Assembly: GCA_027366585.1 (NCBI GenBank) | Contig: DAHXNF010000040.1 | Span: 5,740 to 69,739, forward strand | DNA from: Thermoplasmatales archaeon | Lineage (GTDB): Archaea; Thermoplasmatota; Thermoplasmata; Thermoplasmatales; Thermoplasmataceae | DNA length: 64,000 nucleotides | Reading direction: 5' to 3' | Shown here: positions 1 through 19,344 of the stretch, piece by piece | Position numbering within the stretch: the first letter of the stretch is position 1 | Layout: every line of letters begins with the position of its first letter | Translations under genes and position numbers: made by a program | Notes under the pieces: model-generated | The model's input: the letters and a program-made list of their open reading frames with translations, nothing else | Told to the model about the DNA's origin: nothing | Databases searched by the model: none

Positions 1-48
1 GATAAGTAATGGCAACACTTATTTTAGTAGTACGCCTTTTGAATCTTA

Positions 49-555: not shown

Positions 556-666
556 TTGCAAAATATACCATCTAATGCCTTAAATGCACGTAGCGTGCTG
601 CATGATAGCCGATGACAATAGGCGAATCATTGAAGCAAAGAGTGCTGGAATCATGGCCTGGACCCG

Positions 667-1044
667 CTATATTGATTCGAGTGCCATCCTCAGCTCATTC
701 TCATAAAACCTCGGTCTTCCTGGATCCTCATCAATGTACTTTTGCGCAAGTTCAGATATTAGTAACATCTTTATCTTGCTCCTCTTCCCATCGCCCTCGA
801 TAACTATCTTGCAGGGTAGATACAGGCCGAAATCATGATTTCTGCCGATAAGCTCCCTGGCCGCTTCCGGTTTGCATACGTCCAGGATATAGTACACGGG
901 AAAATCATCCCCGAACTTGTTTTTTATTATTTCCTTCACGTCCACATAGGACAGTAAAGCGAAACCTATTTCCTTGAGCTTCTGGGAGATCTTCAGGAAC
1001 GTCTTTTCAGTATCCAGGTCTACAATCCTCTCAAATTTATACAC
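667..1044 (-). CDS. DUF302 family protein
   Basis: 125-aa ORF. The pattern YILDVCKPEAARELI...GLYLPCKIVIEGDG matches the DUF302 signature (il..CnP..a..ll...lPc.v.v). Confidence 0.7.
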   Translation of the reverse strand: MYKFERIVDLDTEKTFLKISQKLKEIGFALLSYVDVKEIIKNKFGDDFPVYYILDVCKPEAARELIGRNHDFGLYLPCKIVIEGDGKRSKIKMLLISELAQKYIDEDPGRPRFYENELRMALESI

Positions 1045-1238
1045 ATTTTGAAAGTCGTTTCACGTACATCTATTTTCCTGACTTCAAGCACCTGCACTTC
1101 AGGCTCACGGTGCATTGTGAATGCATATCATTCTCTCCCCCACTCAACACAATCCCAGACTTGAAGGAGGCGAAAAGCCGTCAATTGCACCAATCTAAAT
1201 GCTTTAGAGTGGGTATGGAATGGAGCGGCAGATCAAAA

Positions 1239-1571
1239 ATGGAATCATCAGACGAGATAATGAGGCAAGTGCAGGATACGATGAAGTTTGCCGGAGAGAA
1301 GGATCCGATGGCGCAGAAAGCATTCATGAATTTCAACCAGGCAGTCCTCGCCCAGGGAAGTCTGTCTACCAAGGTCAAGGAGCTCATTGCTGTCGCCCTA
1401 TCCCTCTCAAGCAATTGCGAATGGTGCATAACTTACCATGTCAAGGCGGCAAAGGATCTTGGCGCAACAGACGAGGAGATCATGGAAGCTTCATACGTGG
1501 CAGTTCTGCTATCCGGTGCACCGGCCCTCATGCATGTTGCCATATTGAAGAAGGCACTAACAGCAAAGTAA
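1239..1571 (+). CDS. carboxymuconolactone decarboxylase / AhpD-like peroxidase family protein
   Basis: The ORF track starts at 1110, but the conserved part begins near the internal ATGs at 1215 and 1239. It has a CxxC motif (SSNCEWCITYHV) and GATDEEIMEASYVA, typical of the AhpD/CMD family. The start is uncertain. Confidence 0.7.
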   Translation: MESSDEIMRQVQDTMKFAGEKDPMAQKAFMNFNQAVLAQGSLSTKVKELIAVALSLSSNCEWCITYHVKAAKDLGATDEEIMEASYVAVLLSGAPALMHVAILKKALTAK

Positions 1572-4419: not shown

Positions 4420-5223
4420 TTATTGCTTATCATGCAATTGCATATATTCTGCATCGGTGAGATCAAAAGCATTGGCTCCGAGGAGTTCATCGATATTTCC
4501 CTTGCTGGAAGATTTGGGGATTGGATAGCTTTTCCTCATCACGTACCTGAGCGCGACCTGAACCGGGGTAGCGTCATGCTTTGCCGCAATCCTGCGAAGA
4601 GAGTCATATGAGTTGACATTGCCTTTCATGATGGGCGTGTAAGCGATAACTTCCACTCCGCTCTTCTCACAGAACGGTATTATGTCGTTTTCAGGGCTCC
4701 TCTTTCCATAGCTGTACTCGATCTGGTTCGCAGCAATGTCGCATGTCTTGGCAGCGTCCATTGCTTCCTGCATTTCAGTAACGCCAAAATTGCTCACTCC
4801 TATGCTTCGAACCAACCCGTCACGGACAAGCTGTTCCATCGCAGAAATCGTTTCCCCAATGGGGACAGATTGATTGGGCCAGTGAATCAGGTAGAGATCG
4901 GCATAAGATGTATGAAGCCTCTCAAGGCTGTGCTTAGCTGCCTTAATGAGGTCATCCCGCATGAGATGTGTATTCCAGACCTTTGTAATTATGAAAAGGT
5001 CTTCGCGGTCATAGATCGAGATAGCCTTTCCAACCAGTTCTTCTGTGTGCCCGGAAGCATACATCTCAGCAGTATCTATCACGTTTATTCCCTTGTCTAT
5101 GGCATATCTTAGCGATTCAACATGAAGATCATCCTCTTTTGGATCGGGAGCAGATTTTCCACCAACACCCCATGTACCCATGCCGAAATCGGAAACAGTT
5201 CTTTTACAGAGGCTCCTTGTCAT
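4420..5223 (-). CDS. aldo/keto reductase family oxidoreductase
   Basis: 267 aa. GMGTWGVGG, IDTAEMYASGHTEELVGKAI, DLYLIHWP and IGVSNF are AKR motifs. Confidence 0.9.
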   Translation of the reverse strand: MTRSLCKRTVSDFGMGTWGVGGKSAPDPKEDDLHVESLRYAIDKGINVIDTAEMYASGHTEELVGKAISIYDREDLFIITKVWNTHLMRDDLIKAAKHSLERLHTSYADLYLIHWPNQSVPIGETISAMEQLVRDGLVRSIGVSNFGVTEMQEAMDAAKTCDIAANQIEYSYGKRSPENDIIPFCEKSGVEVIAYTPIMKGNVNSYDSLRRIAAKHDATPVQVALRYVMRKSYPIPKSSSKGNIDELLGANAFDLTDAEYMQLHDKQ

Positions 5224-5386
5224 GGATTGGTTCAGTTTATCCTGCCTTATATTTTCACTGCTTTTTCCTTCATAACAGGGAAAAATGCATGCATTGTGTC
5301 GACGAAAACAGATAATATTCCGAATCGATCGGAAGATTACGGATACAAATGGCCGGGAAAATTCCCGGCTCTAATGACAAGTAAGC

Positions 5387-5980
5387 TCATGCCGCAGTCA
5401 GTATCTCATAGGAAGCGGTCGAGTCCTTTTTCGTCGTTATTATGATAGTCTCGTTGGAGCATGAGATAAGCTGGATTATGTTGATCCCCCTTGAATAGAG
5501 CTTGTGGGTAATCCTCATCACAAAACCGGGAGTTGACTCAATTTCCTTTGGGGACAGGATGTGGATCATGCTTACATCCGCCTCCAGAGTCACTCCCTGT
5601 GCATTCCGTGGAATTCTCGTTTTCATCTCATCCACGATATAGACGATGCTGTCCTGCAGGAAAGTCGCCGAGATATAGCCAACAGGCAGGACCGATTTTG
5701 ACGTCACGACGCATATCTTGTCCTGGATGGAAACCCTGCTCTTTTTCAGGAGCGAGTCTGCGTTTTCCTTTCCGGACGAGGAAGGACCTCTCTCCTTTAT
5801 CCTTTTCAATGCAGCCCTTATTGAAATTAGGTTAAGATCAACATGTTCCTTTCTTATACGCAGTGCAAGGCCGCTTATGTTGACAACACCATCCCTCAGG
5901 GCGAGCAGTATGTCAGGGTTCTCGTCCAGGTATCCCGTGACGATGCTTTCCAGCGTTTTCCTTTCCCGTTTAACTTTCAC
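5387..5980 (-). CDS. conserved hypothetical protein with C-terminal ACT-like domain
   Basis: 197-aa ORF. The C-terminal segment (VSMIHILSPKEIESTPGFVMRITHKLYSRGINIIQLISCSNETIIITTK) resembles aspartokinase-type ACT domains. No stronger assignment is possible. Confidence 0.45.
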   Translation of the reverse strand: MKVKRERKTLESIVTGYLDENPDILLALRDGVVNISGLALRIRKEHVDLNLISIRAALKRIKERGPSSSGKENADSLLKKSRVSIQDKICVVTSKSVLPVGYISATFLQDSIVYIVDEMKTRIPRNAQGVTLEADVSMIHILSPKEIESTPGFVMRITHKLYSRGINIIQLISCSNETIIITTKKDSTASYEILTAA

Positions 5981-6094
5981 AAACTGATAATAGTATTGTT
6001 AATGTTAATACTATTCATATTTTTTTATCATTAATTTGATTATTTTTGACATTTTTAATATAGAAGTTAATATCAACCTGCCTGATCGGCAGGC

Positions 6095-7315
6095 ATGAAA
6101 GAAAAGGCACTGCTACTTTACTCTGGCGGACTGGATACTTCGGTAATGATAAAATGGCTCCAGGAAATGAAGAATTATAACGTGTTAACCCTGACACTCG
6201 ACGTCGGGCAGGAAAAGAATGACCTCATGGCAATTGGAGAGAAGGCGAAGCTTTTGGGAGCCATAAAGTCGATCACGCATGATGCGACCGACAAGTTTGC
6301 GGACGATTTTATTTCCATGGGGATATTAAGCAACGGCCTTTACGCGGACAGATACCCGCTTTCAACCAGCCTTGCGCGGCCGCTTATGGCCGAGCTTGCA
6401 GTGAAATACGCACAGGAAAACTCGTGCGGCATAATAGTCCACGGCTCCACCGGCAAGGGGAACGACCAGGTTCGCTTCGAGGTATCAATCAAGGCACTGG
6501 ATGATGGCATCAAGGTACTTGCGCCGGTCAGGGAAATGAACATGAACCGTGAGGAGGAAATTGAGTATGCGAAGGAGAAAGGCATAGCCATACCATACGG
6601 CGGAAAATACTCGGTTGACGAGAACCTCTGGGGCAGATCGGTTGAGGGCTCCACAATCGAGGATATAAGCGCACCAGTTCCGGTCGACGCCTACCGCTGG
6701 GTCATGCCGCTCGATGAATTGCGCGGATCCAGGAGGAGGGTTTCAATCACCTACGAGAGCGGAATACCGGTCGCAATAGATGGAAAGAACATGCCGCTCA
6801 AGGACCTGGTGATGAAGATGAACGAGATCGCAGGTTCACATGGAATAGGTGCAATCGACATGATCGAGGACAGGGTTGTCGGCATCAAGAGCCATGAGTT
6901 CTACGAATGCCCTGCGGCCGTGACCCTCATTGAAGGCCATAAGTACCTTGAATCGGCGGTGTTGAGCAGGCGTGAGCTGAAGGTAAAGAAGTTCATGGAC
7001 GACCAGTTTTCCGAACTGGTTTACGGTGGTCTCTGGCATGATCCGCTGACCGCCTATATCTGCGATTTTGAAAAGCGCATGAACGGTCCTGTAACAGGAA
7101 CTGTGCAACTGGATCTTTTTATGGGAAGCATAAAGCACGCTGGCGTTGAATCAGGCAGCTCACTGTACGACCAGGCCACCTCTACTTACGGGAAGGCACA
7201 GACATTTGACCAGACAATGTCTCCCGGCTTCATCTATGTATACGGTGCGTCAACTGTTGCTTCCAGAAAAGTCAGGAGCCAAAAGTTAACGGAAATCAGC
7301 CTGGAAGGGCGATAA
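6095..7315 (+). CDS. argG: argininosuccinate synthase
   Basis: 406 aa. LLYSGGLDTS (N-type ATP-PPase), HGSTGKGNDQVRFE and ENLWGRS match ArgG. Confidence 0.95.
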   Translation: MKEKALLLYSGGLDTSVMIKWLQEMKNYNVLTLTLDVGQEKNDLMAIGEKAKLLGAIKSITHDATDKFADDFISMGILSNGLYADRYPLSTSLARPLMAELAVKYAQENSCGIIVHGSTGKGNDQVRFEVSIKALDDGIKVLAPVREMNMNREEEIEYAKEKGIAIPYGGKYSVDENLWGRSVEGSTIEDISAPVPVDAYRWVMPLDELRGSRRRVSITYESGIPVAIDGKNMPLKDLVMKMNEIAGSHGIGAIDMIEDRVVGIKSHEFYECPAAVTLIEGHKYLESAVLSRRELKVKKFMDDQFSELVYGGLWHDPLTAYICDFEKRMNGPVTGTVQLDLFMGSIKHAGVESGSSLYDQATSTYGKAQTFDQTMSPGFIYVYGASTVASRKVRSQKLTEISLEGR

Positions 7316-7346
7316 CCTGCAAAAAATCTGGGCAGGGGGCGCAGCC

Positions 7347-8654
7347 ATGCCATCGGGCACGGACCTGAGCGACATATTAACCAAGGAGGATTCGCGAATA
7401 GATGCAATCATGCTCGATTACGAGCTGATGAACCTGATCGCATTCCACCTGGACATGAAGGACAGGGAGATAATTCCGCCGGCAGAAAGTGCATCAATAA
7501 TCACGCATCTCGTGGGAATGCTTGGAAAGAAAATAAGCATCGATCCGGAAGAAGAGGATGTACACGCATACGTGGAAAACCGGATCCGTGAGAAAGCCGG
7601 CGATTCAGCCGGGAACCTCAGGCTTTTCATCTCCAGGAACGAGCAGAGCCAGTGCAACCTGAGATCCTTCTACATTGACCACCTTCTTATTCTGGCAGGA
7701 ATCCTGCTGCAGGGCTCGGCTTCATTGGAGGAAATCTCCTCCACTGCAAAGGGCAAGATTCCCGGGTTTACCCACTGGAGGCAGGCAATGCCGGTCTCAA
7801 TCTCAACCTATCTTGATTACATTTCCCGTATAAACATGGATCTCGCGGGTGAGGCAGTGTCGCTGATCAGGAGACTCAGGAAATTTTCGCCAATGGGACT
7901 GGGCTCAGGCTATGGAAGCCTATCCAATGCGTCTTTTGATCAGGTTGCAGAATATCTTGGATTCGCTGCCGGCCCGAAGAACCCTGTTGCCGCTGCATTC
8001 TATCGGGGTTTCGATGACATCGATGTGATGTCCCTGCTGGTCAGAATAATGATCTTCTATTCCCGGGTATCGGCGGATCTAATTCTCTACTCGTCAGGAA
8101 GTAACCCTTTTCTTATCCTGCCGGAATCGTTTCTTACCGGAAGCTCGCTCATGCCAAACAAGCGAAACCCGGATTTTCTCGAAATGGTCCAGGGATACGC
8201 ATCCCAGTTCACCGGAGATCTTGCTGCAGCCGCAGCAATTCTGGCAGGCAGTAATACCGGCTATCACAGGGAATTCCAGGTCTCAAAGGACAGGACCGTA
8301 TCAAACATCCTGCTGGTCGAAAGCATCTCGAAGCACATGAATCAGCTTATGCAGGAAATGAAGTTCGATCCTACCGCATCCAGGGAAGCTATCGAGAACC
8401 AGTCATATGCATTGCATGAGGCATATGAGTTATTCAGGAAAACCGGGAAATGGAAGGAATCGTATCAACAGGCAGGCTCAATGGTAAGATCGGGGAAGAG
8501 GTTTAGCGAGCGTGATCCGATAGACTATTTCAGCGTTGACGACAGCGATCTCAAGGAACTTGAAGGAGATCTCCTCACATTATATAACGCATGGAATGGG
8601 CCCCGGAAAAAACTCGTTAAAATGGCGCGTTCATTGCAGCAAACCCCGGGTTGA
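7347..8654 (+). CDS. argH: argininosuccinate lyase (fumarate-lyase superfamily), divergent
   Basis: 435 aa, immediately downstream of argG. It carries the fumarate-lyase signature GSSLMPNKRNPDFLE. Confidence 0.8.
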   Translation: MPSGTDLSDILTKEDSRIDAIMLDYELMNLIAFHLDMKDREIIPPAESASIITHLVGMLGKKISIDPEEEDVHAYVENRIREKAGDSAGNLRLFISRNEQSQCNLRSFYIDHLLILAGILLQGSASLEEISSTAKGKIPGFTHWRQAMPVSISTYLDYISRINMDLAGEAVSLIRRLRKFSPMGLGSGYGSLSNASFDQVAEYLGFAAGPKNPVAAAFYRGFDDIDVMSLLVRIMIFYSRVSADLILYSSGSNPFLILPESFLTGSSLMPNKRNPDFLEMVQGYASQFTGDLAAAAAILAGSNTGYHREFQVSKDRTVSNILLVESISKHMNQLMQEMKFDPTASREAIENQSYALHEAYELFRKTGKWKESYQQAGSMVRSGKRFSERDPIDYFSVDDSDLKELEGDLLTLYNAWNGPRKKLVKMARSLQQTPG

Positions 8655-9519: not shown

Positions 9520-9810
9520 GACTGAAATATAATAGAAGATACCTGATAAATAAATTTGCTTAACTTTACATCATTTCCCTTTCAACTTACCTCGGAATCG
9601 CTGAATTAGAGGACTTCTGGCAATTGAGCTGTAGATGCATATTCACAATCTTTCGGGGTAACCGCCGCTGTACTTCTGGTGTAGAGGGATAGGTATCTCA
9701 GGGATACCGTGGATTCAATCATTGGGCACAGGAACAACGGTCTTTCTCCCGGCGACTATGCCCTCATATTCACAATGAACCGCCTCTCTGTCCGAGATCG
9801 AAGAACCGGA

Positions 9811-10366
9811 TGCATGAGTGGATGCGAGGCGATTACCCACCCACACTCTATCCAAAAGTGACTTCACAGGGATTCTGGAACATGATGGATCGTTTCTCCG
9901 AAGAAGGAATGAAAGCAATAAGGGACATGACAAAGGAGAGACTTATCTCCCTTGGTTATGATCATTCCACTCTTTGTTGAAGGCTCCAATTTCTACACCT
10001 TCATTAGGAGAATGACATGGCAAAGAAAGCACACAGCAAGCAGCACCGCATTGATCTGAACCAAATCGCACATTACATAGCGGCAAATGATGACTATATT
10101 CCTTTCTACGGTGAATCCTATCCCGGCAATTTGCATGATTCCGGTACATTTCCATGGATAGTGGGCAATATCCCTCGGGATTCCACGGTGATATTCATGG
10201 CATTTACAACACTGAGAAGAATGTTTCACTTCTTGGTGAGAAGAAATACATCGTTGCTCTCGTGCTTTCGGACCACAGTGATCTCATGTCACTTCACATG
10301 GAAAGGGATTCGTACACTGAAACATTGTCAACGCCCATTCAATTTTTCCCAAAAACACCCAAATAA
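9811..10366 (+). pseudogene. IS1634-family-like DDE transposase remnant (multiple frameshifts, truncated)
   Basis: The reading frame breaks at least 3 times. Pieces are ...LISLGYDHSTL / FVEGSNFYTFI / AHSKQHRIDLNQIAHYIAANDDYIPFYGESYPGNLHDSGTF / SGFHGDIHGIYNTEKNVSLLGEKKYIVALV. They resemble the D..TN.Y / GHSK..R.DL.Q / Y.GN..D core of IS1634-type transposases. Confidence 0.5.
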
Positions 10367-10426
10367 AAAATCCCCAAATACGCTCATTGAAATTTCACCA
10401 TTTCATGCACATGACGAGGAAATTAC

Positions 10427-10609
10427 GTGTTGCGCGATGAGAGGTGGCGTATGATAAGAAACTTGGTAGAGAACGGTTCGAAAATATCTGACATAGCAAG
10501 GGACCTGAACCTTGAAAGAAAGACGGTGAAGAAGTACTCGAAATCAAAGGTTGTGCCTAGGTACAGGATGGGGCAAGGCTCTCATTCCTTTAGTAGCGAG
10601 TGCACTTGA
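10427..10609 (+). pseudogene. transposase N-terminal HTH fragment (IS21/IstA-like)
   Basis: 60-aa GTG-initiated ORF (ERWRMIRNLVENGSKISDIARDLNLERKTVKKYSK), the typical IstA-type HTH. No catalytic domain follows. Confidence 0.4.
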
Positions 10610-10826
10610 TTCTCCAGGAATATCAACCTCTCCCCATGACTATGTTAATAATTTTGGCTTGCAATGGGTCTGGGCTGGCGTCCACTATCCTTGGACAGAG
10701 ATATTTGTACCTTGAAACTAGCGTTGGATTAGCTCCATGCAAAGAGTAAGGGCTATAGTGATGTGGGTAAATCTAATGAGATGGATGGGAATAATAGCTT
10801 GAAGGAATTGAAGATGTGAGATAAAA

Positions 10827-11642
10827 ATGACTAACCCTTTTATCTATTTTCTGTTGAGTGTGTCAGCATTCTATATGGCTGCACTCTTGATTTTGGTTGA
10901 TGCTTTTCTCAGATACAGAAAACCTAGAAGCAAAAAGTTAGTCGTTCGCAGGCTGAATGCAGTTTCCATTCTTGTTGTTCTTGATTCTACGGCGTACATA
11001 ATTGGAATTGCGATTCTAGTACTATCAAGCAATCAAATCGGAAATGCGTCCTTTCACTTCAATGTGGGATTATATTCTGCTCTATTTGTTTTAAGCTGGA
11101 TTCCCATATTCCTTTTGGCCACGATGCTTTGGAGGTCCTCCCAGCAGGTTCAAGGGCGTTCCAGAAGTAAGAATATCGAACACTTCAAAAATGAAACCTA
11201 TGGACTTGCTTTCTTTATTTCAGTTACAATTGCTCTAGTCGCCGTGTCACTCTCTTACTATCTTTATCTAAAAAGCAGTTCAGCTGCATCAATCGGTTAT
11301 TTCTTAATTTATCTCCTTGTTCTTTTTGATGGCTTATCGCTAATACTATGGCTAAGCATGAAATATGGAGAGAAAAATCAAACCGGTGAGGTCGCTCACG
11401 AAGTTGAAAGCAATGAAATGAGCCAACTAACAGCCAGTAGCACCGTTCAGCTTAGAGCCTCCAGAAAAGTATCACTTTATGTCTTTTTAGGCAGTTTCAT
11501 TCTTGAACTCGTATTATATGCTATGAGTAATGCTAAGATAATTGAAGTTGGAATACCGTTTGACAATCCGTATTTTTCCGGCTTGGGATATCTCTCGGGC
11601 ATCTCATTTGTTTTGTGGCTTGCTTTCATGATTGCAAGGTAG
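10827..11642 (+). CDS. hypothetical polytopic membrane protein
   Basis: 271 aa with an ATG start. About 7-8 hydrophobic segments separated by short basic loops. AT-rich and lies between IS remnants. No family recognised. Confidence 0.6.
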   Translation: MTNPFIYFLLSVSAFYMAALLILVDAFLRYRKPRSKKLVVRRLNAVSILVVLDSTAYIIGIAILVLSSNQIGNASFHFNVGLYSALFVLSWIPIFLLATMLWRSSQQVQGRSRSKNIEHFKNETYGLAFFISVTIALVAVSLSYYLYLKSSSAASIGYFLIYLLVLFDGLSLILWLSMKYGEKNQTGEVAHEVESNEMSQLTASSTVQLRASRKVSLYVFLGSFILELVLYAMSNAKIIEVGIPFDNPYFSGLGYLSGISFVLWLAFMIAR

Positions 11643-11752
11643 AAGCTTCTGCTGTGATATCCCTTGTAACCCTTCAATGCACATGGCTTCTTTTTATCTC
11701 CATTATGATCTGGGGGATTTTCTGTCTCTTTCTTTTTATTTCCTTCAAGTAC

Positions 11753-11932
11753 CCATAAGGTTTGCAGTTCCCAACCCCAGCATTCTCCGGGTGCCTGATC
11801 GTGGATGCTATAAACGATCTATGCACTGGATCTCATGTCAGTGTGACATGCACTACAGGAGAGGATGGGAGGACAGTCCCTCAAATTGCCTCTCTGGAAT
11901 CTATCAGCGATAAAATCAAGTGAACTCACGAT
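11753..11932 (+). pseudogene. IS66-family-like transposase remnant (zinc-finger region), left copy
   Basis: Nucleotide similarity to 19090-19252, ending in the same ...aattgcctctctggaatctatc(a/g)gcgataaaa...aactcacgat. One frame reads IASLESISDK, like the CG..L..IG segment of the IS66 zinc-finger region. Heavily degraded. Confidence 0.4.
11884..11932. repeat. direct repeat copy A (49 nt) matching 19203-19252
   Basis: aattgcctctctggaatctatcAgcgataaaatcaAgtGaactcacgat against aattgcctctctggaatctatcGgcgataaaaatcaTgtAaactcacgat. About 45 of 50 positions are identical and the orientation is the same. Confidence 0.9.
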
Positions 11933-11946
11933 AGGGAGTCTCGAAA

Positions 11947-11973
11947 CATTAATAAACAGAATATATATATAAT
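11947..11973 (+). promoter_or_regulatory. AT-rich promoter region with TATA-like boxes upstream of the kinase-HD gene
   Basis: ttaataaa (11949-11956, about 30 nt upstream of ATG 11983) followed by atatatatataa. The spacing fits an archaeal TATA box driving a leaderless or short-leader mRNA. Confidence 0.35.
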
Positions 11974-11982
11974 TTGTTAAAA

Positions 11983-14900
11983 ATGACTTCAACGGAGCAT
12001 TTGTGTACTTATTACGATAGCGAAAGTGACCAATGTAGAGTTAACCGCAAATCTCCCAGCATCTTCGGTAAAGATCACTACACTCGGTTTTGTTCAAGTT
12101 CGCTTGAATCTTGGGTATTCTGCCATGAGTATATAGTAGGCGAGCTAAAGAAGAACGACTTTAAAGACATTGTAGACCTAGAAAAGATCGGCTCGGCAGA
12201 ATATAGTTCATTGAAAAACTTGACTGGACCAAAATTAGCGAATTTGGTTTTGTTCCTAAATTTGCCATCGATTAGCAATTGCAGTAAATGCAAAAATACC
12301 CCTTACAAAGTTGGAAAAAGTAAAAAAAGCACAGGTATGTGCTGGGAGCATAACATAAAGATGCAAAAGACAATATTTATGCTAGAAACTGTGCATCACT
12401 TTGTGAATTCTGATAATTTACTTCCATTTTCTTTCACTCTGGGAACTCACGGACCTATGAGCGATGCATTAACAAGTTATCTAGTTGACAAACGCATTTC
12501 ACCTGAAGAATGGTTGGAAATGAAATCTAGACCCGACTTAGGATTAGGGGAAAGTGCACATGGTATTGTTAGCAGGTTAGTAAAATCTTACTTTAGCGCT
12601 GATCCTCGCGAAATGGAACTGCTAACTTCTGAGGTTGTAAAGCTTGAGGCAGAAGGCTTCATAAAAAAGTCAAAATATCTTGACCTTGGCGTTTCGACCG
12701 ATTCTATTTCACTATTCGAAAAAAACCTAAACGAAAAGTATGAATCAAAAAATATAGGAAATTTCGCTGAAGATTGGAAATTACTCAAGAAACCACTTGA
12801 AGAAACCTTTATTAAATTGAGGAGTTTAGGGTATGAATATTCAAAGATACTGGGAATAGGTAGTTCTGCGGTAGCATTTTTGGTAGAAAAAGTGAAAAAT
12901 GAACAAGTGATTTCTCACGAGCGATACAAAGTAGTCAAGTTTCCTCGACCCACACAAGGAGAATTCAAACTATCTAATCTAAGAGCAATCAAGGGTGAAG
13001 CGGACAAGTTGGCTAAATTGCACCACCCAAACATTGTGTCAGTCAATCATATTGAAACCATCAAAACCGGAGTTGTCGGTAAAGAGGATTCCCTGATGTG
13101 GTTTCTCATGGAATACATTGAAGGTGCTGTAGACTTGGGTGAATTTGTGGATTTCGAGACTCCACAACCCCATTCTGTCCAAACACATGGAGGTGGACTC
13201 ACAGCCTTTGACCAAGTTTTGAGTAGTATTGGAAAGAAGAAACCTACTTTTAATTTTACTTTCGAAAACTTCATACAAATTTTTAGAGACGTCGGAGACG
13301 GACTGTCATATCTCCATAGTGAAGGAATTGTGCACCTTGATGTCAAACCCGGAAATATTTTGATATCCAGAACGCCTAATACTGGTGTGTGCAGGGCATT
13401 CATTACTGATTTAGGCTACTCTGTTTACAAGAACTTCAATGAAAGCGCGGAGAACTCTTCTGAATCAACTAAAATCAACATCAGGTGCGACTACGAAGTC
13501 GCTCCCCCATTTTTTAAAAACTGTCTTGAAAAGGGATACTCACGGGAAGGTATGGTTTATTCTATCGGGGTGAGGGAATTGAAAAACTACGGGGACCTTT
13601 TCGATCTCTACGAGCTTGGTAAGACTATGAAGATTATCTTCGAGAAAATAGACCATGGCATGGTCAAGTTTGGACTTTCAGATGATTGGATTGATCCATA
13701 CAGAAAGAGGTATGTCTATATAATCATAGGGAGGCTATTGTCAAACTCCGCATTTCCTGAAACTAATGAGAATTCAGAAGGCTTAAACGAATTTAGCTAC
13801 TATTTGACCCGAGTTACTCTTGAGTCGGCGAAGCAGCTTAAATTCGACTCGGCTTCTGATTTTGTAATTGAATTAGATAAGATGAATGCAAGGGTTGCAC
13901 TGATTAGTTTACTGCCCGAGGCTTCTATAATGGAGAACGAGACTATTAGGCTGCTAAACGTAGGTGGTTCACAGCTGATGGCACCATTATCTAACCGAGT
14001 CAAAAAAATAGTCGATCACGTTAAGTTTGCCAGACTGTCTAACGTGAGCCAGTTGGGGTTTGTTAGATTGGTCTTTCCTGGGGCTATAGGAACACGGTTT
14101 GAACATTCTATAGGCGTGTACTTGCTGACGATACAGTACATTATTGCACTTTGGAACGATAATTTGAATCCCATGTTCAAATCAGTCATGAGAAAGCAAG
14201 ACCTTGAACTCGCTATTCTGGCTGCGTTGCTACATGATGTTGGGTACTTTCCAATGGCACATGATCTTGAGGATACACATTTCATTAATCCAAAGGAAAC
14301 ACATAGTGGTCTGAAACTTCATGAGCAAATTGGGTTAGACGTTATACCACAATTCAAGGACGTTATGTCGGGCGAGTGGAGCGTTTCTGTCGAAGATGTA
14401 TATTCACTTTTGTCAGGCGATGAGTCGAATTATAAGAATAATGAATTCAGATGGAAAATAATAAGATCGCTAATTAGCGGCGTGATTGATTCTGACAAAC
14501 TGGATTACGTTTACAGAGATTGCAGACACTTAGGTCTACCTTACGCCGAAGGTATTGACCGGAGTCAAATGATAAGGAATTTGACTCTAGAATATAGCGA
14601 AAACACAGATATTATTCAAAATGATAGAAAGAAGGAGATCCAAGATGGCCCGGAAATAGCAGTTAAGGAAAAAGGAAGGATAGCAGCTGAAATGCTATCA
14701 TTCGCAAGATATGCAATGTTCTCTGTTGCATATTGGCACCACACGGTTAGGATCTTGAAGCGAATGCTGAGTTTTGTTGTGGAGAAGATACCAGAAAGGA
14801 ATAAACGAAATGTTATGGAGTTTATTGAACAGTATGAGAAGGAATTTGATTTGAAACAAGACGCGGAAATACTTTGGGGCAGAACACTTGGTTATTCTGA

Positions 14901-15399
14901 TAAATCATTTTTGCTTATGTTGAAGCGTAATACTTCAGAAGAAGGGGCACTAATGATCGACTGTATCTTAGAGAGAAAACTTTACAAGAGAATTAAAGTA
15001 TATAATAGCACAGAACCTGAATTTGAAGAACTGCAAACTATAGATGTTTCACACCTTGAGCGTAAGTTTGCAGGTTTGGTAGAGGAAGAATTGAAGATTT
15101 CTGGCAAATCCGACGCAGAAATACATATAGGGATCCCACTCGTGCTAATCGATCAGCCTATTATGCAAAAGAAAGCTACTTTATTCACTGTACGTGAAGA
15201 CAATGAAATTAGGTTTAGGGCATTGAAATCTAATGTTAACGAATTGATTTATGATAAAGTGCTACCCGGTCTCGCGAAGATAAGAGTTTTGATACCATAT
15301 CATGTCTGGATACTTCTGAAGGAGAAACAAAAGTTGGATCTCAGAGATAAGATCGCAAAAGGAATATCAAAAGCAACTTCTAATGAACTTAGAAGGTAA
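11983..15399 (+). CDS. fusion protein: Cys-rich N-terminal region + Hanks-type Ser/Thr protein kinase + SAMHD1/dGTPase-type HD phosphohydrolase
   Basis: The track ORF 11974-15399 starts at TTG and the first ATG is at 11983. Kinase motifs are LGIGSSAVAF, YKVVKF, HLDVKPGNILI and ITDLGYS. HD motifs are RFEHSIGVY, LLHDVGYFPMAHD and DSDKLDYVYRDCRHLG. Single uninterrupted frame. Confidence 0.9.
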   Translation: MTSTEHLCTYYDSESDQCRVNRKSPSIFGKDHYTRFCSSSLESWVFCHEYIVGELKKNDFKDIVDLEKIGSAEYSSLKNLTGPKLANLVLFLNLPSISNCSKCKNTPYKVGKSKKSTGMCWEHNIKMQKTIFMLETVHHFVNSDNLLPFSFTLGTHGPMSDALTSYLVDKRISPEEWLEMKSRPDLGLGESAHGIVSRLVKSYFSADPREMELLTSEVVKLEAEGFIKKSKYLDLGVSTDSISLFEKNLNEKYESKNIGNFAEDWKLLKKPLEETFIKLRSLGYEYSKILGIGSSAVAFLVEKVKNEQVISHERYKVVKFPRPTQGEFKLSNLRAIKGEADKLAKLHHPNIVSVNHIETIKTGVVGKEDSLMWFLMEYIEGAVDLGEFVDFETPQPHSVQTHGGGLTAFDQVLSSIGKKKPTFNFTFENFIQIFRDVGDGLSYLHSEGIVHLDVKPGNILISRTPNTGVCRAFITDLGYSVYKNFNESAENSSESTKINIRCDYEVAPPFFKNCLEKGYSREGMVYSIGVRELKNYGDLFDLYELGKTMKIIFEKIDHGMVKFGLSDDWIDPYRKRYVYIIIGRLLSNSAFPETNENSEGLNEFSYYLTRVTLESAKQLKFDSASDFVIELDKMNARVALISLLPEASIMENETIRLLNVGGSQLMAPLSNRVKKIVDHVKFARLSNVSQLGFVRLVFPGAIGTRFEHSIGVYLLTIQYIIALWNDNLNPMFKSVMRKQDLELAILAALLHDVGYFPMAHDLEDTHFINPKETHSGLKLHEQIGLDVIPQFKDVMSGEWSVSVEDVYSLLSGDESNYKNNEFRWKIIRSLISGVIDSDKLDYVYRDCRHLGLPYAEGIDRSQMIRNLTLEYSENTDIIQNDRKKEIQDGPEIAVKEKGRIAAEMLSFARYAMFSVAYWHHTVRILKRMLSFVVEKIPERNKRNVMEFIEQYEKEFDLKQDAEILWGRTLGYSDKSFLLMLKRNTSEEGALMIDCILERKLYKRIKVYNSTEPEFEELQTIDVSHLERKFAGLVEEELKISGKSDAEIHIGIPLVLIDQPIMQKKATLFTVREDNEIRFRALKSNVNELIYDKVLPGLAKIRVLIPYHVWILLKEKQKLDLRDKIAKGISKATSNELRR
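12832..13740 (+). other. protein kinase domain of the fusion protein
   Basis: Numbering is from track start 11974. G-loop G294-F302, Lys322 (VVKF), aC Glu in IKGEADKLAKL, catalytic loop H454-L-D456-VKPGN, D479-L-G. Confidence 0.85.
13987..14794 (+). other. HD phosphohydrolase domain (COG1078 / SAMHD1-like) of the fusion protein
   Basis: H711 (RFEHSIGVY), H754-D755 (LLHDVGY), D839..D841...D844 (DSDKLDYVYRD) and YWHH. This is the motif order of dNTP triphosphohydrolase-type HD proteins. Confidence 0.8.
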
Positions 15400-15517
15400 T
15401 GAATTGTCTTCTGGCAAATAGGTTCAAAGGACATATATGTGACTTTACATAAATCATTTAGCTGATTATTTGAAGATAACCTTCAATGCTGCCTGGATTG
15501 CTAATTGCCTTCAGGTG

Positions 15518-15949
15518 CTACACAATTTCTTCAAGATTTAGCTTTTTAATGACATCCTTCCCTATTTCGACATTAGATGCAGGGCTGTGTGCAAAGTTGT
15601 TGCCCATCTCCTTTGCATCCACTGGCTCCTTGATGGAACGTGCCCTGTTGTTTGTGAGGTTTCTTGTCTTCTCACGTATTCTCTTCTCGGATTTTGGAGA
15701 GGGAAAACATCTCATTACCCTCTTCCTCCTCCATCAGGAATACTGCCTCACAAACCTAAAGCCGAGGAATTCGATGCCACGCTCCGCTTCAACAAGTCTC
15801 GTCTTCTCAGGGTTGAGTGTAAGACCCAGGTCTTCTAGGATCATTTTTAGCTTCTCGTACAGGAAAGAGGAGGTGAGATCAGTCACGGGTGGATCCAGGT
15901 GCACAATCGAAGACGCACGGAAGATCACAGACTGCAAAGGAGATGGCAA
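15518..15949 (-). pseudogene. reverse transcriptase C-terminal fragment (group II intron RT/maturase-like), frameshifted
   Basis: The two minus-strand ORFs together read ...VIFRASSIVHL...LGLTLNPEKTRLVEAERGIEFLGFRFVRQ / PSPKSEKRIREKTRNLTNNR...NNFAHS... This matches RT domains 5-7 plus the thumb/X region. The YADD position reads ASSI and N-terminal RT domains are absent. Confidence 0.55.
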
Positions 15950-16320
15950 TGTATGGTGCCCTGACAGCTATCCTCTCAAACATTGAAAATAAGAATTACA
16001 TTGAGAATGTCCTCTCAAGGGTAGATTTCCTGAATGAGTTTGTATCCATGAGCCCAGAGGAGATGGATAATGCAAGGAAACTCGTAGGGCCGAACCCAAG
16101 TAAGCCAATAGTAAGAAAAGATTGGGAGATGAAGCCAGTTCTTGATATCATTGTGTAGATCCTTGAAACGTATGAGGATCTACCAATCAAAGAAGTAAAA
16201 GCATGGGTCAAATCGATCAAAACCTAAGAGTATTTTGACACCATATCGAACGATTATTAAAATTCCTACAAGCTTTCTCAAAAACCATATCGTTACCTTT
16301 TTTCATAACCCCAAGTCAAA

Positions 16321-16449
16321 TTGAATAAATCTGCTCCAGACAGGATCAAGGATATTCTTACAGACCTCTATAACAACGATACAGAGAAGGCAGGAAGGCC
16401 AAACTATGAGCCTGTGCTCGTGGTGAAAACATTACTGCTTATTCTCCTT
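16321..16449 (+). pseudogene. IS5/IS1182-type transposase N-terminal (DUF772-like) fragment
   Basis: Reads ...DTEKAGRPNYEPVLVVKTLLL, the GRP.y.P..m.K.LLL motif. It ends abruptly where IS630-derived sequence begins. Confidence 0.45.
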
Positions 16450-16567
16450 TAGTTTATTCTTTCCACGCTTATGCAGGTAATCGAAGCTTTGAGCCTCTGA
16501 TAGTTTTCTCAACTCCTCATTTGGCCTGGAATGTTTGCTGAATTCTTCAGAAAGGGCATTCTTCAGC

Positions 16568-17011
16568 TCACTCAGCAACCGGAAATACCTGTTGTGTTGC
16601 ATGCTTCTTTACAAGCTTCCTCACCCTTTCAATGGGGTTCAGTTCCGGTGAGTACGGTGGAAGAAATATCATATCAATACACGTAAGGAATGCATAATCT
16701 GTGATTAGACATGCATGGTGATACAGTGCATTGTTCAGTACAAGTATACTGTCCGGCAATCTTGCATGCACACGGGAGAGGAACTCCAGGAATGTGAGTG
16801 CATTGTACTTTTTCCTGACCTCGCTGACAAGGCTGCCGTCTTTTATGCTCACGGCACCGAAGACACTTATTCCTTTCCGGTTCGGTTCCTGCAGCACTGC
16901 TGGATCTGCATCTTCAGGAGGGTACCATGCCCTTACCCTAGTGCCGTGTTGATAGAAATGGCACTCATCCATGAATACAAGAGATTTTTCCTCACGAAGA
17001 AGTGCAGTCAT
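16568..17011 (-). CDS. IS630-family transposase orfB (DDE_3 catalytic part, probably inactive)
   Basis: 147 aa. LVFMDECHF (first D), VLNNALYHHA (second catalytic D reads N) and PPYSPELNPIERV. The ATG overlaps the orfA TGA (ATGA). Confidence 0.7.
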   Translation of the reverse strand: MTALLREEKSLVFMDECHFYQHGTRVRAWYPPEDADPAVLQEPNRKGISVFGAVSIKDGSLVSEVRKKYNALTFLEFLSRVHARLPDSILVLNNALYHHACLITDYAFLTCIDMIFLPPYSPELNPIERVRKLVKKHATQQVFPVAE

Positions 17012-17511
17012 TTTTTTTTGAAAATCTCTTTTTTGGCATCATCACCCTTTGCTATTACAGGTCTTGGTTTCCTCAGCCGGAGGCCAAGCTTCCTGAATAT
17101 CCTCTGGCACTGTCTGGTTCCCAGGACAATGCCATATCTGTCCTTTATGTGATGGCTAAGCAGTTTGCCATCCCAGAGATTCTGATCATAACCAAGGTCC
17201 ACAGGATTCTTCCGAAGATCCCTCCCTATTTCATCCATTATGCTCGACAGTCTTGCAGGCCTGCCAGGCCTCCCTTGTTCCCTGAGCCCGTCAAAACCAT
17301 CCTTCAGAAAAGCCTTGACCCATGTCTCTATGATCTTGGGGCTGTTGCCCATAACCTCAGATACCTGGTATGGGCTCATGCCGTTGGCCACAAGGAGGAG
17401 ACCATGAAGCCTGTGATCATACCTGGAATCATCGTTGCGTCTAATCTCGTCGATTATGTCCATCTTTCTGTCATCTGATATGGTAAGTTTTCTCATAATA
17501 CAGGTAATCAA
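17008..17511 (-). CDS. IS630-family transposase orfA (HTH / winged-helix part)
   Basis: 167 aa. SPYQVSEVMGNSPKIIETWVKAFLKDGFDGLREQGRPGRP...WDGKLLSHHIKDRYGIVLGTRQCQRIFRKLG is typical of the IS630/Tc1 N-terminal. Confidence 0.75.
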   Translation of the reverse strand: MITCIMRKLTISDDRKMDIIDEIRRNDDSRYDHRLHGLLLVANGMSPYQVSEVMGNSPKIIETWVKAFLKDGFDGLREQGRPGRPARLSSIMDEIGRDLRKNPVDLGYDQNLWDGKLLSHHIKDRYGIVLGTRQCQRIFRKLGLRLRKPRPVIAKGDDAKKEIFKKK

Positions 17512-17569
17512 AAAGTATATTTATACTATGCGCAAATAATTATGACGCCATGTATAGTACTTTGCACTT

Positions 17570-18538
17570 TTAGAGCTGATGCAAATCGTTCGAAGGCGGA
17601 GCAGTCACATTAGGTTGACTCGGTAGAGCTGTCTTAATAAAGGATTTTCCCATATTATTTTCCACTATCTTAACCGCTGTAGTGTATGTAAAAGTTATCA
17701 TTGCTGAATGATAAACAGACAGCACCAAGTCCTGTAAAGTCTGATCATCTTCTAAATTATCAATTTTCATTCCATGATTCCTAGCATTTTCTCTATCTAT
17801 GTATATACCGTGACTTTTGAATTCATGATGATCACTTAGCCAAGCAGAGATTTTGGACGCTTTGATCTTGGCATCCTGGTCGTCACCAAACATGTACGTT
17901 GTCAACCATTCACTCACTAAACTCTTTGAAAGTTCTAACTGATCTGATGCATCTTGAATTAACGCAGGTCCATACTGAGATATGATAGGCATCCAAACAC
18001 CGATACTATCTGGGTCATGTTTAATTTCCTCTTTTGCTTTCTCAAATTGGTCGATAATAGCTTGAGCAGGCCATGACATTGCACTTCCTTGATATGGAAG
18101 CACAAACTGAGGGTCAATAGGTCCAATGAAAGAATGTTTTCCCATTACTATCCGATTTGCTGAACAAGATAGCATAGTGGCAGCCGACATCGCGGCGTGA
18201 GGTACAATCACTCTAACATCAGTGAACCTCGTTCTCAAATATTTAACTAGTGCACCAGTAGCTTCAGCAGTACCTCCAGGGCTATGTACTATTAGGTCAA
18301 TTTCATTTCCGTCCAGTCCGTGTAACACTTCCATAAATGCTTCAATGTCCTCATCTGCTATGGATAACAATTCAGGAGATATTTGTCCTTTGGGTTGTGT
18401 CCAACTGGAAGCGTACAGTACTGCACTTCGATGAGTGTGCTCTGTAAGTTGTTTAAGATACTTCCGTCTCACAATATCGAACGCGGATGCCGTTGTAATT
18501 TGGGATATTTCGGCAAGTAGTTCACTCCAAGTAGGCAT
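17570..18538 (-). CDS. ClpP-fold serine protease, S49/SDH (serine dehydrogenase proteinase)-like
   Basis: 322 aa. IDLIVHSPGGTAEATGALVKYLR...VRVIVPHAAMSAATMLSCSANRIVMGKHSFIGPIDPQ matches the PF01972-type pattern (lhtPGG...vP..AMSgGT..alaad.i.M...a.lGPiDPQ). Confidence 0.75.
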   Translation of the reverse strand: MPTWSELLAEISQITTASAFDIVRRKYLKQLTEHTHRSAVLYASSWTQPKGQISPELLSIADEDIEAFMEVLHGLDGNEIDLIVHSPGGTAEATGALVKYLRTRFTDVRVIVPHAAMSAATMLSCSANRIVMGKHSFIGPIDPQFVLPYQGSAMSWPAQAIIDQFEKAKEEIKHDPDSIGVWMPIISQYGPALIQDASDQLELSKSLVSEWLTTYMFGDDQDAKIKASKISAWLSDHHEFKSHGIYIDRENARNHGMKIDNLEDDQTLQDLVLSVYHSAMITFTYTTAVKIVENNMGKSFIKTALPSQPNVTAPPSNDLHQL

Positions 18539-18540
18539 AC

Positions 18541-18735
18541 TCAGCGCCGTTTCATAGACGTCGAATCAGTAACTGAAACCTTCGGAAATGTACTATATAT
18601 TTTGTTATATTTTTGGTAAATTTCTATATGCTTCTGATACTGTCTGAAAAGTTGCTCTACTTCTCCAATACCAGGTTTTCTTTTGGTTATAATATCGTTA
18701 TACTCATCTTCAAAAGTCATAGTGTAAATCACCAT
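18541..18735 (-). CDS. hypothetical small protein (64 aa), translationally coupled to the protease
   Basis: The stop at 18541-18543 lies 2 nt from the protease ATG (18538). The ATG at 18735 sits about 23 nt downstream of a TATA-like catttataga on the minus strand, whereas the track start at 18750 is GTG. Helical, Lys/Glu/Tyr-rich, no family recognised. Confidence 0.45.
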   Translation of the reverse strand: MVIYTMTFEDEYNDIITKRKPGIGEVEQLFRQYQKHIEIYQKYNKIYSTFPKVSVTDSTSMKRR

Positions 18736-18870
18736 GCTCAAATACAACACAAATCTATAAATGTTGTTATTAAATGTAACAGGTTGCTGTTCTGTAGTTA
18801 AATCATTACTAGAACCGCTATGTCACTGGACCGAAAGATCCATATATAAAGATTGCATTATATTAATAAC

Positions 18871-19252
18871 ATGATTAAATTATTTGCAGAAACGCCAAGG
18901 GATCAGAGGATCATTGACGCCATGAAGAAGGCTGAGAAGTGGAAGGATAGGAAGATAGATGAACTGCAGGACGAGAATAAAGGTTGAAGGAACAGCTTGA
19001 TGAATACAAGAAACGCCACCCTTCCAACATAGGCGAGAAGAACGGCAAATCATACGAGATCATGCCACAGCCTACAGAAAGGAAGAAACCGGTACTGAAG
19101 AAGGGCCACATAGGTTTCTTCAGAAGATCGCCTGACAGCATAGACCAAGTGGTGTATGTTGTCAATATGCACTACAAAAGAGATTAAGCGTGCACACGCT
19201 CTAATTGCCTCTCTGGAATCTATCGGCGATAAAAATCATGTAAACTCACGAT
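18871..19252 (+). pseudogene. IS66-family-like transposase N-terminal remnant, right copy (frameshifted, truncated)
   Basis: Coiled-coil N-terminus MIKLFAETPRDQRIIDAMKKAEKWKDRKIDELQDENK, then a frameshift to LKEQLDEYKKRHP...ERKKPVLKKGHIGFFRRSPDSID, the IS66 G.pGH.G..R motif. The zinc-finger-like IASLESIGDK lies in a third frame. Confidence 0.5.
19203..19252. repeat. direct repeat copy B (50 nt) matching 11884-11932
   Basis: See copy A. Weaker similarity extends about 40 nt further upstream in both copies (atgcactaca..agag). Confidence 0.9.
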
Positions 19253-19344
19253 TTGTATGCCAAAATCCCCAGCTTCTTATATATCATTAAGGTATCTGAT
19301 AATGCTTGAAAGCAGAACAAACGTTATCGACGGCCACGGATCAC

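Follow-up and report, generated by a model that had tools for sequence, protein, structure and literature searches.

A cysteine-rich module, a non-RD Hanks-type kinase and a predicted SAMHD1/EF1143-type dNTP triphosphohydrolase in one chain, encoded in a foreign island of a Thermoplasmatales archaeon

In a 64,000-nucleotide stretch of a Thermoplasmatales archaeon assembly (contig DAHXNF010000040.1, positions 5,740 to 69,739; hereafter the window), positions 11983-15399 of the plus strand were found to hold one intact open reading frame (ORF), encoding 1138 aa from the ATG at 11983 or 1141 aa from the TTG at 11974 and closed by a TAA stop codon at 15397-15399. An earlier note on this DNA had read the ORF as uninterrupted and as a fusion of a kinase with an HD-type phosphohydrolase, and the reading frame is indeed unbroken from either start. 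The product is, as predicted from its sequence and modelled structure, a single-chain enzyme of three modules, a Cys-rich module, a non-RD Hanks-type kinase and a SAMHD1/EF1143-type deoxynucleoside triphosphate (dNTP) triphosphohydrolase, and its gene is laid out as follows.

11949..11974, plus strand: AT-rich, TATA-like run just 5' of the ATG, read directly from the sequence; a possible archaeal promoter, which would imply a leaderless or short-leader transcript
11983..15399, plus strand: complete kinase-HD fusion gene (ORF list, codon checks, and an identical 1138-aa product, P0174, in JGI/Logan)
11983..12687, plus strand: N-terminal Cys-rich module, aa 1-235, putative sensor or regulatory part (six-cluster alignment; AlphaFold2 predicted local distance difference test, pLDDT, of 72)
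12688..12831, plus strand: pre-kinase helical segment, aa 236-283 (the family profile begins at about aa 237; model helices at 239-256 and 261-281)
12832..13572, plus strand: Hanks-type Ser/Thr kinase domain, aa 284-530 (Pfam PF00069, conservation in 154 representatives, model)
13573..13983, plus strand: conserved helical linker from the kinase C-lobe to the HD core, aa 531-667 (family profile, alignment, model)
13984..14787, plus strand: SAMHD1/EF1143-type HD catalytic core, aa 668-935 (Pfam HD, PDB profile alignments, residue mapping, Foldseek)
14788..15396, plus strand: C-terminal lobe of the dNTPase fold, aa 936-1138, into which HD_assoc_2 runs (PF19276 at 891-1028; Foldseek alignments of about 500 columns)

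The evidence favours the ATG at 11983 as the start, because residues 1-235 align from Met1 with five other protein clusters and because the product carried by the JGI and Logan assemblies is identical over all 1138 aa. The NCBI gene call at the same locus (P0001, 1020 aa) begins 118 codons too late, and its start removes half of the conserved Cys-rich N-terminal module. Residues are counted here from the ATG at 11983, which places them three lower than in the earlier note, where counting began at 11974, so that its K322, D456, D479, H711 and H754 correspond to K319, D453, D476, H708 and H751. The motifs it had cited all lie where it had placed them: codon checks returned GAT at 13339-13341 for the Asp of H-L-D, GAT at 13408-13410 for the Asp of D-L-G, CATGAT at 14233-14238 for the HD pair, and DSDKLDYVYRDCRHLG from 14488. 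An AlphaFold2 model of the full-length protein, made from 71 family sequences, reached a mean pLDDT of 84.5 and a predicted template modelling score (pTM) of 0.77, and the structural description that follows, of a kinase, a linker and a SAMHD1/EF1143-type dNTPase core in one chain, is almost certainly correct.

The HD half was matched by Pfam HD at aa 705-795 (E 8.8e-8) and by HD_assoc_2 (PF19276) at aa 891-1028 (E 8.6e-10), both above cut-off. Its core residues are Q690-L691, R705-x2-H708, H751-D752, H760, H780-E, D836-x-D838-K839-x-D841-Y842-x2-R845-D846, R909 and Y917. A search of the PDB with the single sequence recovered SAMHD1 at an E of about 1e-11; with a family profile, EF1143 came out at 5e-30 and SAMHD1 at about 1e-21 to 4e-25, with a best E of 3e-36, and the sequence matches comprised Aquifex 2hek, Bacteroides 2q14, Enterococcus EF1143 and the SAMHD1 proteins of human, mouse, C. 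elegans and Rhizophagus. When the model was compared with the PDB by Foldseek, the top matches were EF1143 with dGTP/dATP (E 3e-14), BT4208 and many SAMHD1 entries, with target-normalised template modelling (TM) scores of 0.61-0.72 over about 480-530 columns and E values of about 1e-12 to 3e-14. As the fold matches span about 500 columns, residues from about 640 to 1138 form a complete SAMHD1/EF1143-type core that extends well beyond the HD motif itself. Pfam, PDB profiles, Foldseek and residue mapping thus agree in assigning this half to the SAMHD1/COG1078 type and to no other HD family, as had been proposed from its motifs, and the suggested comparison of a predicted model with SAMHD1 and EF1143 returned both among the top folds.

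Conservation was followed in 154 family representatives. The metal ligands H708, H751-D752 and D838 are kept in 97-100% of them, and at least 94% keep the equivalents of SAMHD1 Q149, L150, R164, H167, H206, D207 and H215, as well as of D309, D311, K312, Y315, D319, R366 and Y374, a set that includes the deoxyribose-gating L150/Y374 and the 3'-OH reader D319 (SAMHD1 numbering). The equivalents of the substrate readers in the window protein are Q690, L691, R705, H760, H780, K839, Y842, D846, R909 and Y917. SAMHD1 H233-E corresponds to H780-E, where H780 is near-invariant in a MAFFT alignment and the same column is variable in an hmmalign-based count. Some positions depart from SAMHD1: in the family, Q, H or Y stands at the position of H210 and W at that of Q375, and the readers of allosteric site 1, D137/Q142/R145, correspond to D678/A683/S686 in the window protein, with the Q142 and R145 columns variable across the family (R/A/S/Q and A/G/K/S), so that the guanine readers are not kept. 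The comparison with SAMHD1 drawn in the earlier note consequently stands for chemistry and fold and fails for regulation, because the allosteric GTP site is not conserved.

The kinase half was matched by Pfam Pkinase (PF00069) at aa 284-530, with an E of 4.8e-15 and 56.1 bits against a cut-off of 31.7. It carries a G-loop (LGIGSSA), K319, E339, H451-L-D453, N458 and D476-L-G, and an insert at about 398-425 that is modelled with low confidence. K319, E339, D453, N458 and D476 are kept in every representative aligned there (139-148 of 154, the remainder being gapped), so the motif set is complete, as had been claimed, and the kinase looks competent, a prediction made from its intact catalytic residues. 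Across the 154 representatives the catalytic loop reads H-[L/C/F/M]-D and R was never seen; as the arginine of HRD is absent from this loop the kinase is classed as non-RD, a subclass trait that is no bar to membership of the Hanks-type superfamily. The activity of non-RD kinases does not depend on activation-loop phosphorylation. A Thr in the activation/P+1 segment is conserved in 132 of the 154 members and is an Asp in the window protein (aa 503, 13489-13491), as it is in the relatives P0002 and P0003 (RCDYEVAPP) that were checked. The pre-kinase helices are conserved family-wide. The linker, of about 140 aa, is modelled as helices at a pLDDT of about 90, is spanned without a break by the family profile in about 150 representatives and has near-invariant residues at D541, G546, R584, Y621, D630, P645 and E646. 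The conservation of catalytic residues across 154 diverged representatives argues that kinase and HD half are both selected for activity.

The N-terminal module of about 235 aa had gone unnoticed in the earlier note. In the six-cluster alignment two four-ligand motifs are invariant, C8/C18/C37/C47 and C100-x2-C103...C120-x2-H123, and they are followed by a helical domain with an invariant G157-P158-x-S160; the module is probably metal-binding. Residues 1-235 had no Pfam match even at E≤10 and no relatives detected outside the kinase-HD family, and a Foldseek comparison of their model (pLDDT 72) with the PDB and BFVD returned no significant fold match. A Panacea/DUF4065 identity for the helical part, suggested by a motif resemblance, found no support in these same Pfam and Foldseek results. 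The module occurs in only 6 of about 154 family clusters, the P0047 cluster bearing a different N-terminal extension, and is the most lineage-specific part of the window protein.

To place the protein among its relatives, an exhaustive profile search was run against 1.84 billion representatives (clusters at 50% identity). With a profile of kinase, linker and HD half, 3,272 proteins were retrieved at E≤1e-30; the best 150 of the 3,272 all had E<1e-119, and in most of these a single match runs through kinase, linker and HD, which supplies the full-length homologues of the same domain order that the earlier note had proposed to look for. Members are typically 850-930 aa long, and the window protein, whose two catalytic centres are intact, scored 1239 bits over profile positions 7-880. 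Word-index homologue searches returned only about 7-8 family members, an under-count arising because generic kinases saturate the candidate list. Among the matches listed, at least three to four members come from a Methanoregula metagenome-assembled genome (MAG), an alphaproteobacterial MAG and an actinobacterium, and many members come from metagenomes. JGI labels members 'HD superfamily phosphohydrolase/serine/threonine protein kinase', and no functional name was met in the sources. The idea of an undescribed rarity had therefore to be given up in part, since there are at least 150 clusters and both halves are already labelled by JGI; the kinase-HD fusions are a large, horizontally mobile, unnamed family.

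The gene lies within an island of the following composition.

9600..19300, no strand: low-GC foreign island holding the kinase-HD gene, bordered by DUF72/argGH and, at its opposite end, by DUF202/Ta1207/ABC transporter genes (composition, gene content)
10427-10609: HTH_7 fragment (Pfam)
10827-11642, plus strand: multi-pass membrane protein, 271 aa, directly 5' of the kinase-HD gene (third-position G+C, GC3, of 0.379)
11848..11935, plus strand: left-hand copy of a direct repeat, imperfect and about 88 nt long (repeat search, alignment)
15734-15949, minus strand: C-terminal fragment of a reverse transcriptase (RT), 71-aa ORF (Pfam RVT_1 positions 170-205; weak PADLOC RT/DRT matches)
16568-17511, minus strand: IS630-type transposase, as a helix-turn-helix (HTH) ORF at 17008-17511 and a DDE_3 ORF at 16568-17011 (Pfam)
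17570-18538, minus strand: ClpP-like SDH-type serine protease, PF01972, 322 aa (Pfam; GC3 0.325)
19167..19255, plus strand: right-hand copy of the repeat of about 88 nt, overlapping the terminal part of a 67-aa ORF fragment (repeat search, alignment)

The island has a G+C of 0.409 against 0.477, and the low G+C that the earlier note had estimated for the gene was borne out, with a G+C of 0.389 and a GC3 of 0.385 against GC3 values of 0.56-0.62 in the flanking katG, argG, argH-like, DUF72 and Ta1207 genes. The insertion sequence (IS) remnants it had reported around the gene are real, comprising the split IS630, the RT fragment and the HTH_7 fragment. The two ORFs of the IS630 transposase overlap by 4 nt, and their splitting could reflect decay or a programmed frameshift. 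The repeats of about 88 nt bracket 7.3 kb with the kinase-HD gene, the RT fragment, the split IS630 and the SDH-type protease; their exact 22-nt core, AATTGCCTCTCTGGAATCTATC, occurs twice against 0 expected, and the two copies may represent either the att-like termini of an integrated element or what is left of a single IS. The 67-aa ORF fragment at 18984-19187 is, we would guess, a transposase remnant. The 271-aa membrane protein belongs to the same island as judged from its GC3; neither Pfam nor PADLOC matched it, and no homologue of it lies near other members of the family. The SDH-type protease, with a 69-aa ORF directly upstream of it (region 17570-18750, minus strand), is likewise taken as cargo of the same foreign island because its GC3 lies below that of the kinase-HD gene; it had no PADLOC match and did not recur in other family loci. 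No group II intron or other non-coding RNA was found in the island by Rfam at E≤0.1, and no tRNA that could have served as an integration site is present in the window. The island is clearly foreign and IS-littered.

Neighbourhoods were compared at 90 unique loci, 32 with fusions and 58 where an HD protein of the same HD clade stands alone, with additional look-ups for single proteins. No universal partner gene was found among the fusion loci analysed. Several fusions have neighbours of defence, restriction-modification (R-M) or mobile genetic element (MGE) type. At one locus (L001) TIR_2, MmeI_N, an rve integrase and two PD-T4-6-like kinases lie near the fusion P0005, and at another, from the Methanoregula MAG (L005), there are ThsB_TIR, an 8xMP membrane protein, a Cas4-like nuclease, a YhcG nuclease and a CARF-like protein. 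At a third fusion (L107) the flanking genes encode a 1004-aa protein that carries SIR2_2 at its N-terminus (4626-7637, minus strand), which we take to be in the size range of DSR-type defence proteins, and an N6_N4 DNA methyltransferase (1-1497, minus strand). Eco57I/MmeI-type IIG enzymes occur at L108 and L142, large serine recombinases at L085, and an M78 peptidase, ParE/HTH and transposase fragments at L185, where they sit between ribosomal-protein genes and transketolase. The two kinases of about 910 aa beside P0005 were considered as family paralogues and rejected, being absent from the best 40 family-HMM matches.

Two kinds of gene recur directly beside fusions. A gene for a methyltransferase (MTase)-type protein of about 550-580 aa adjoins the fusion at its 3' end, or overlaps it there, at L122, L132, L138, L140 and L143 (for example L143:11647-13314), and is present at 0 of the 58 standalone-HD loci; the protein is matched by models of type II N6-adenine methyltransferases and by mad2 of MADS, and this sub-lineage is a possible methylation-linked system whose effector is not a nuclease. 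A Peptidase_M78 gene (ImmA/IrrE, CapP-like) is found immediately 5' of the fusion, in the same or in divergent orientation, at L092:243-959, L094:9280-9966 and L185:9219-9893 (a Pfam count of 3 among 104 scanned neighbours), and its product is a possible transcriptional or proteolytic regulator of the kinase-HD system.

The contexts of the relatives that bear the Cys-rich module all differ from one another and from the window: P0002 has an acetyltransferase and, downstream, what we read by eye as a DegT-type aminotransferase, P0020 has hypothetical proteins only, P0023 a He_PIG protein, and P0032/P0170 PLDc_2 and a permease. The absence of housekeeping neighbours noted for the window gene thus extends to these relatives, which share no conserved housekeeping synteny.

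SAMHD1 restricts viruses through its dNTPase activity and is controlled by cyclin-dependent kinase (CDK) at T592. The family resembles it in a fold shared over the whole core (TM 0.61-0.69), in metal ligands, catalytic His and dNTP readers, and in an association with kinase control; it differs in that SAMHD1 has a SAM domain, a kinase acting in trans and the Q142/R145 readers, and the family has a fused kinase. The best matches to the HD half are EF1143/COG1078 proteins (2o6i, 3irh, 4lrl, 2hek, 2q14; 5e-30 to 3e-36 by profile, 3e-14 by Foldseek), which share HD and HD_assoc_2 with it. They stand alone, at about 370-480 aa, and lack the kinase, the linker and the N-terminal module; EF1143 has retained the Q/R allosteric readers that are not conserved in the family. 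Defensive dGTPases and dCTP deaminase are alike in depleting dNTPs during infection, and the deaminase has a fused, essential N-terminal kinase-like domain; the dGTPases, however, belong to the Dgt/COG0232 branch, which is not directly alignable to SAMHD1, and the kinase-like domain of the deaminase has a predicted nucleotide-binding motif, in contrast to the Hanks-type protein kinase of the window protein. Clover likewise holds a defensive HD dNTPase under a dedicated regulatory enzyme, but this regulator is a separate nucleotidyltransferase (NTase), CloB, which makes p3diT, and activation is by dTTP, whereas the candidate regulator here is the fused kinase; no CloB-like NTase was found by Pfam among the window neighbours.

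The kinase part also recalls MAD6, PglW, PD-T4-6 and Stk2. The PADLOC matches to the window protein that were listed (25 of 30 matched families) all fall within aa 245-505, the best being mad6 with an E of 1.6e-18 over aa 245-486, which takes in the pre-kinase helices and covers model positions 34-206 of 659; PD-T4-6, MkoA and PglW match more weakly. To our knowledge no MAD6, PglW, PD-T4-6 or Stk2 kinase carries an HD dNTPase. Membership of MADS was rejected, as the NF047741 MAD6 model gave 48 bits against a cut-off of 460 and MAD7, MAD8 and mad2 were not found by PADLOC among the island ORFs, nor mad2 by the MTase-partner HMM in the window, MAD7 and MAD8 being mandatory in the published MacSyFinder model (10.1101/2023.03.30.534895). 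Membership of BREX type 2/Pgl was rejected too (NF033442 PglW, 30 bits against 990; no PglX/Y/Z neighbours). The MTase-paired sub-lineage echoes the pairing of kinase and MTase in MADS and Pgl (10.1101/2023.03.30.534895), and hints at methylation-dependent self/non-self discrimination with a non-nuclease effector. A search of full-text literature found no description of a Hanks-kinase-HD fusion, and with the listed PADLOC matches confined to the kinase part and MAD6 and PglW far below cut-off, the protein belongs to no named defence system, as the earlier note had supposed.

We put at roughly one in two the probability that the protein serves in anti-virus or anti-plasmid defence by dNTP depletion, under regulation by its kinase. 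The HD half would be the effector, converting dNTPs to deoxynucleoside and triphosphate and starving the replication of invading DNA. Such a toxic dNTPase would have to be kept off until a trigger is sensed, and the fused kinase may be its built-in switch, gating it by auto- or trans-phosphorylation in an oligomer and replacing both the GTP/dNTP allostery of SAMHD1 and the partner-enzyme control of Clover. Candidate phospho-acceptors are the conserved columns T548, S/T670, S/T704 and T868. The Cys-rich module would be the input sensor in the sub-lineage of the window, and in other sub-lineages a partner gene, the mad2-like DNA methyltransferase or the M78 peptidase, may take the input role. 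Swapping of the N-terminal module and of partner genes between sub-lineages is typical of conflict systems. Defence by dNTP depletion is the most economical reading because there are three precedents for it, namely the CDK control of SAMHD1, the defensive dGTPases and the dCTP deaminase with its essential kinase-like domain (10.1101/2021.04.26.441389), and Clover, whose defensive dGTPase is lethal unless a partner enzyme holds it in check (PMC12265719). A 2026 review holds that SAMHD1-like bacterial defence proteins may remain unidentified (PMC13276650).

Immunity by nucleotide depletion is established in animals, through SAMHD1, and in bacteria, through dGTPase, dCTP deaminase and Clover. How toxic dNTP-depleting enzymes stay silent until infection is understood in few cases only, and if the proposed defence is real it would add a third, phosphorylation-based control to such immunity and bring archaea into the range of dNTP-depletion defence. 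The HD half can be aligned with SAMHD1 directly, which is not so for the Dgt-type defensive dGTPases. The broader proposition, that a non-RD kinase directly gates a SAMHD1-type dNTPase in a widespread and unrecognised class of prokaryotic immunity, is tentative and on balance doubtful; if true, the family would be a single-polypeptide prokaryotic version of the kinase-controlled dNTP starvation of animal SAMHD1. Nucleotide-depletion defence with a fused regulatory principle would be new, conditional on experiments, for which the family gives handles in K319/D453, H751/D752 and the Cys ligands, and in variants that are fused or split, have an MTase or M78 partner, or are with or without the N-terminal module.

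Such a defence role is suggested by guilt by association in relatives, where at least 14 of the 21 fusion loci with at least 7.6 kb show defence, R-M or MGE-type neighbours, a count with no background rate to set it against; many loci are on short contigs. Several results weigh against the role. In the window, the other island ORFs had no PADLOC match and the island holds no recognisable defence gene, so that of the earlier note's claim that the context favours an accessory or defence role the foreign, mobile setting was upheld and independent evidence of defence was not obtained. No co-conserved neighbours of the window gene were found in 264 fetched loci. None of the PADLOC nucleotide-depletion models matches the protein, none of the 25 listed PADLOC families covers its HD half, and no PADLOC 2.0 system includes a kinase-HD member. 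The specificity for dNTPs is predicted from conserved residues, and we infer, rather than observe, that the kinase phosphorylates the HD half and not other proteins. Metabolic contexts were seen at L099 and in parts of L122, L143 and L108, and the standalone HD clade (about 430-500 aa) recurs beside ECF sigma factors, PknB-like kinases and LeuA, TPR and BON genes (for example L117:7411-9120 and L121:7615-8292, and also L133, with a PknB-like kinase divergent). These standalone loci look physiological, and they hint at kinase-HD coupling in trans in some lineages.

A physiological role was kept open because this standalone sister clade sits in housekeeping-looking contexts. EF1143-type enzymes are usually regarded as housekeeping dNTPases, and the fusion could likewise be a host regulator of dNTP pools, replication or the cell cycle in which the kinase integrates growth or stress signals and tunes dNTP levels, by analogy with the control of SAMHD1 by CDK and with no immune function, as the metabolic genes ringing some fusion loci would suggest. 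We consider this unlikely, in view of the patchy distribution over Methanoregula, Alphaproteobacteria, Actinobacteria and the window archaeon, the foreign GC3 and IS debris, the lack of synteny among the five closest relatives, the frequency of defence, R-M or MGE neighbours, and the modules and partners swapped between sub-lineages. The roles of the two halves might instead be reversed, the kinase being the effector, which would abort infection by phosphorylating many host or viral proteins as in Stk2 or PD-T4-6, and the HD half a dNTP sensor or a parallel effector. Clover shows that dNTPases can sense nucleotides, since CloA senses dTTP (PMC12265719), and the kinase is uniformly of the non-RD class that needs no activation-loop phosphorylation and resembles defence kinases (mad6, PD-T4-6, MkoA, PglW); but PADLOC holds only defence kinases, so that this resemblance is partly a library effect, HD catalytic and substrate residues kept at 94-100% argue for turnover over mere binding, and the known allosteric readers of SAMHD1 are exactly the ones not conserved, which together make this arrangement rather improbable.

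That the HD half acts on another substrate, such as NTPs, signalling nucleotides or nucleic acids, appears very unlikely: the close structural relatives 2hek and 2q14 have no assigned activity, the H210 and Q375 positions have changed and PDB entries show SAMHD1 binding nucleic acids, yet the deoxyribose and triphosphate readers L150, Y374, D319, R164, K312, R366 and H215 are all kept and the best fold matches are dNTP-bound EF1143 and SAMHD1. Finally, the five relatives with an MTase gene directly 3', together with the RT and IS debris that occupies this place in the window (15400-17511), raised the prospect that the window gene is the orphan half of an MTase-linked pair, its partner lost to the RT/IS630 insertions and the protein itself nonfunctional or deregulated. 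There is very little to be said for this, as the MTase-partner HMM found no match, not even a fragment, in the window, the MTase-linked fusions have no N-terminal module, the closest relatives P0002, P0020, P0023 and P0032 have no MTase neighbour, and the ORF is fully intact.

Two family copies were found in tandem at L099:10001-15717, the first broken into pieces of 564 aa and 237 aa and the second apparently divided between a kinase gene (304 aa) and an HD gene (655 aa) that overlap by 16 nt; the arrangement reflects either frameshifts in the assembly or a naturally split version of the fusion. Carriage of the family by viruses was considered and rejected, as only one IMG/VR contig holds a true member, that being L085, with serine recombinases and probably an integrated element. 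The other 79 IMG/VR matches (L186-L264, GVMAG giant-virus contigs) are SAMHD1-like HD proteins of at most 36% identity to the HD core of the family, most of them 24-33%, which are unrelated to the fusion family and are notable as viral carriers of dNTPase-like genes.

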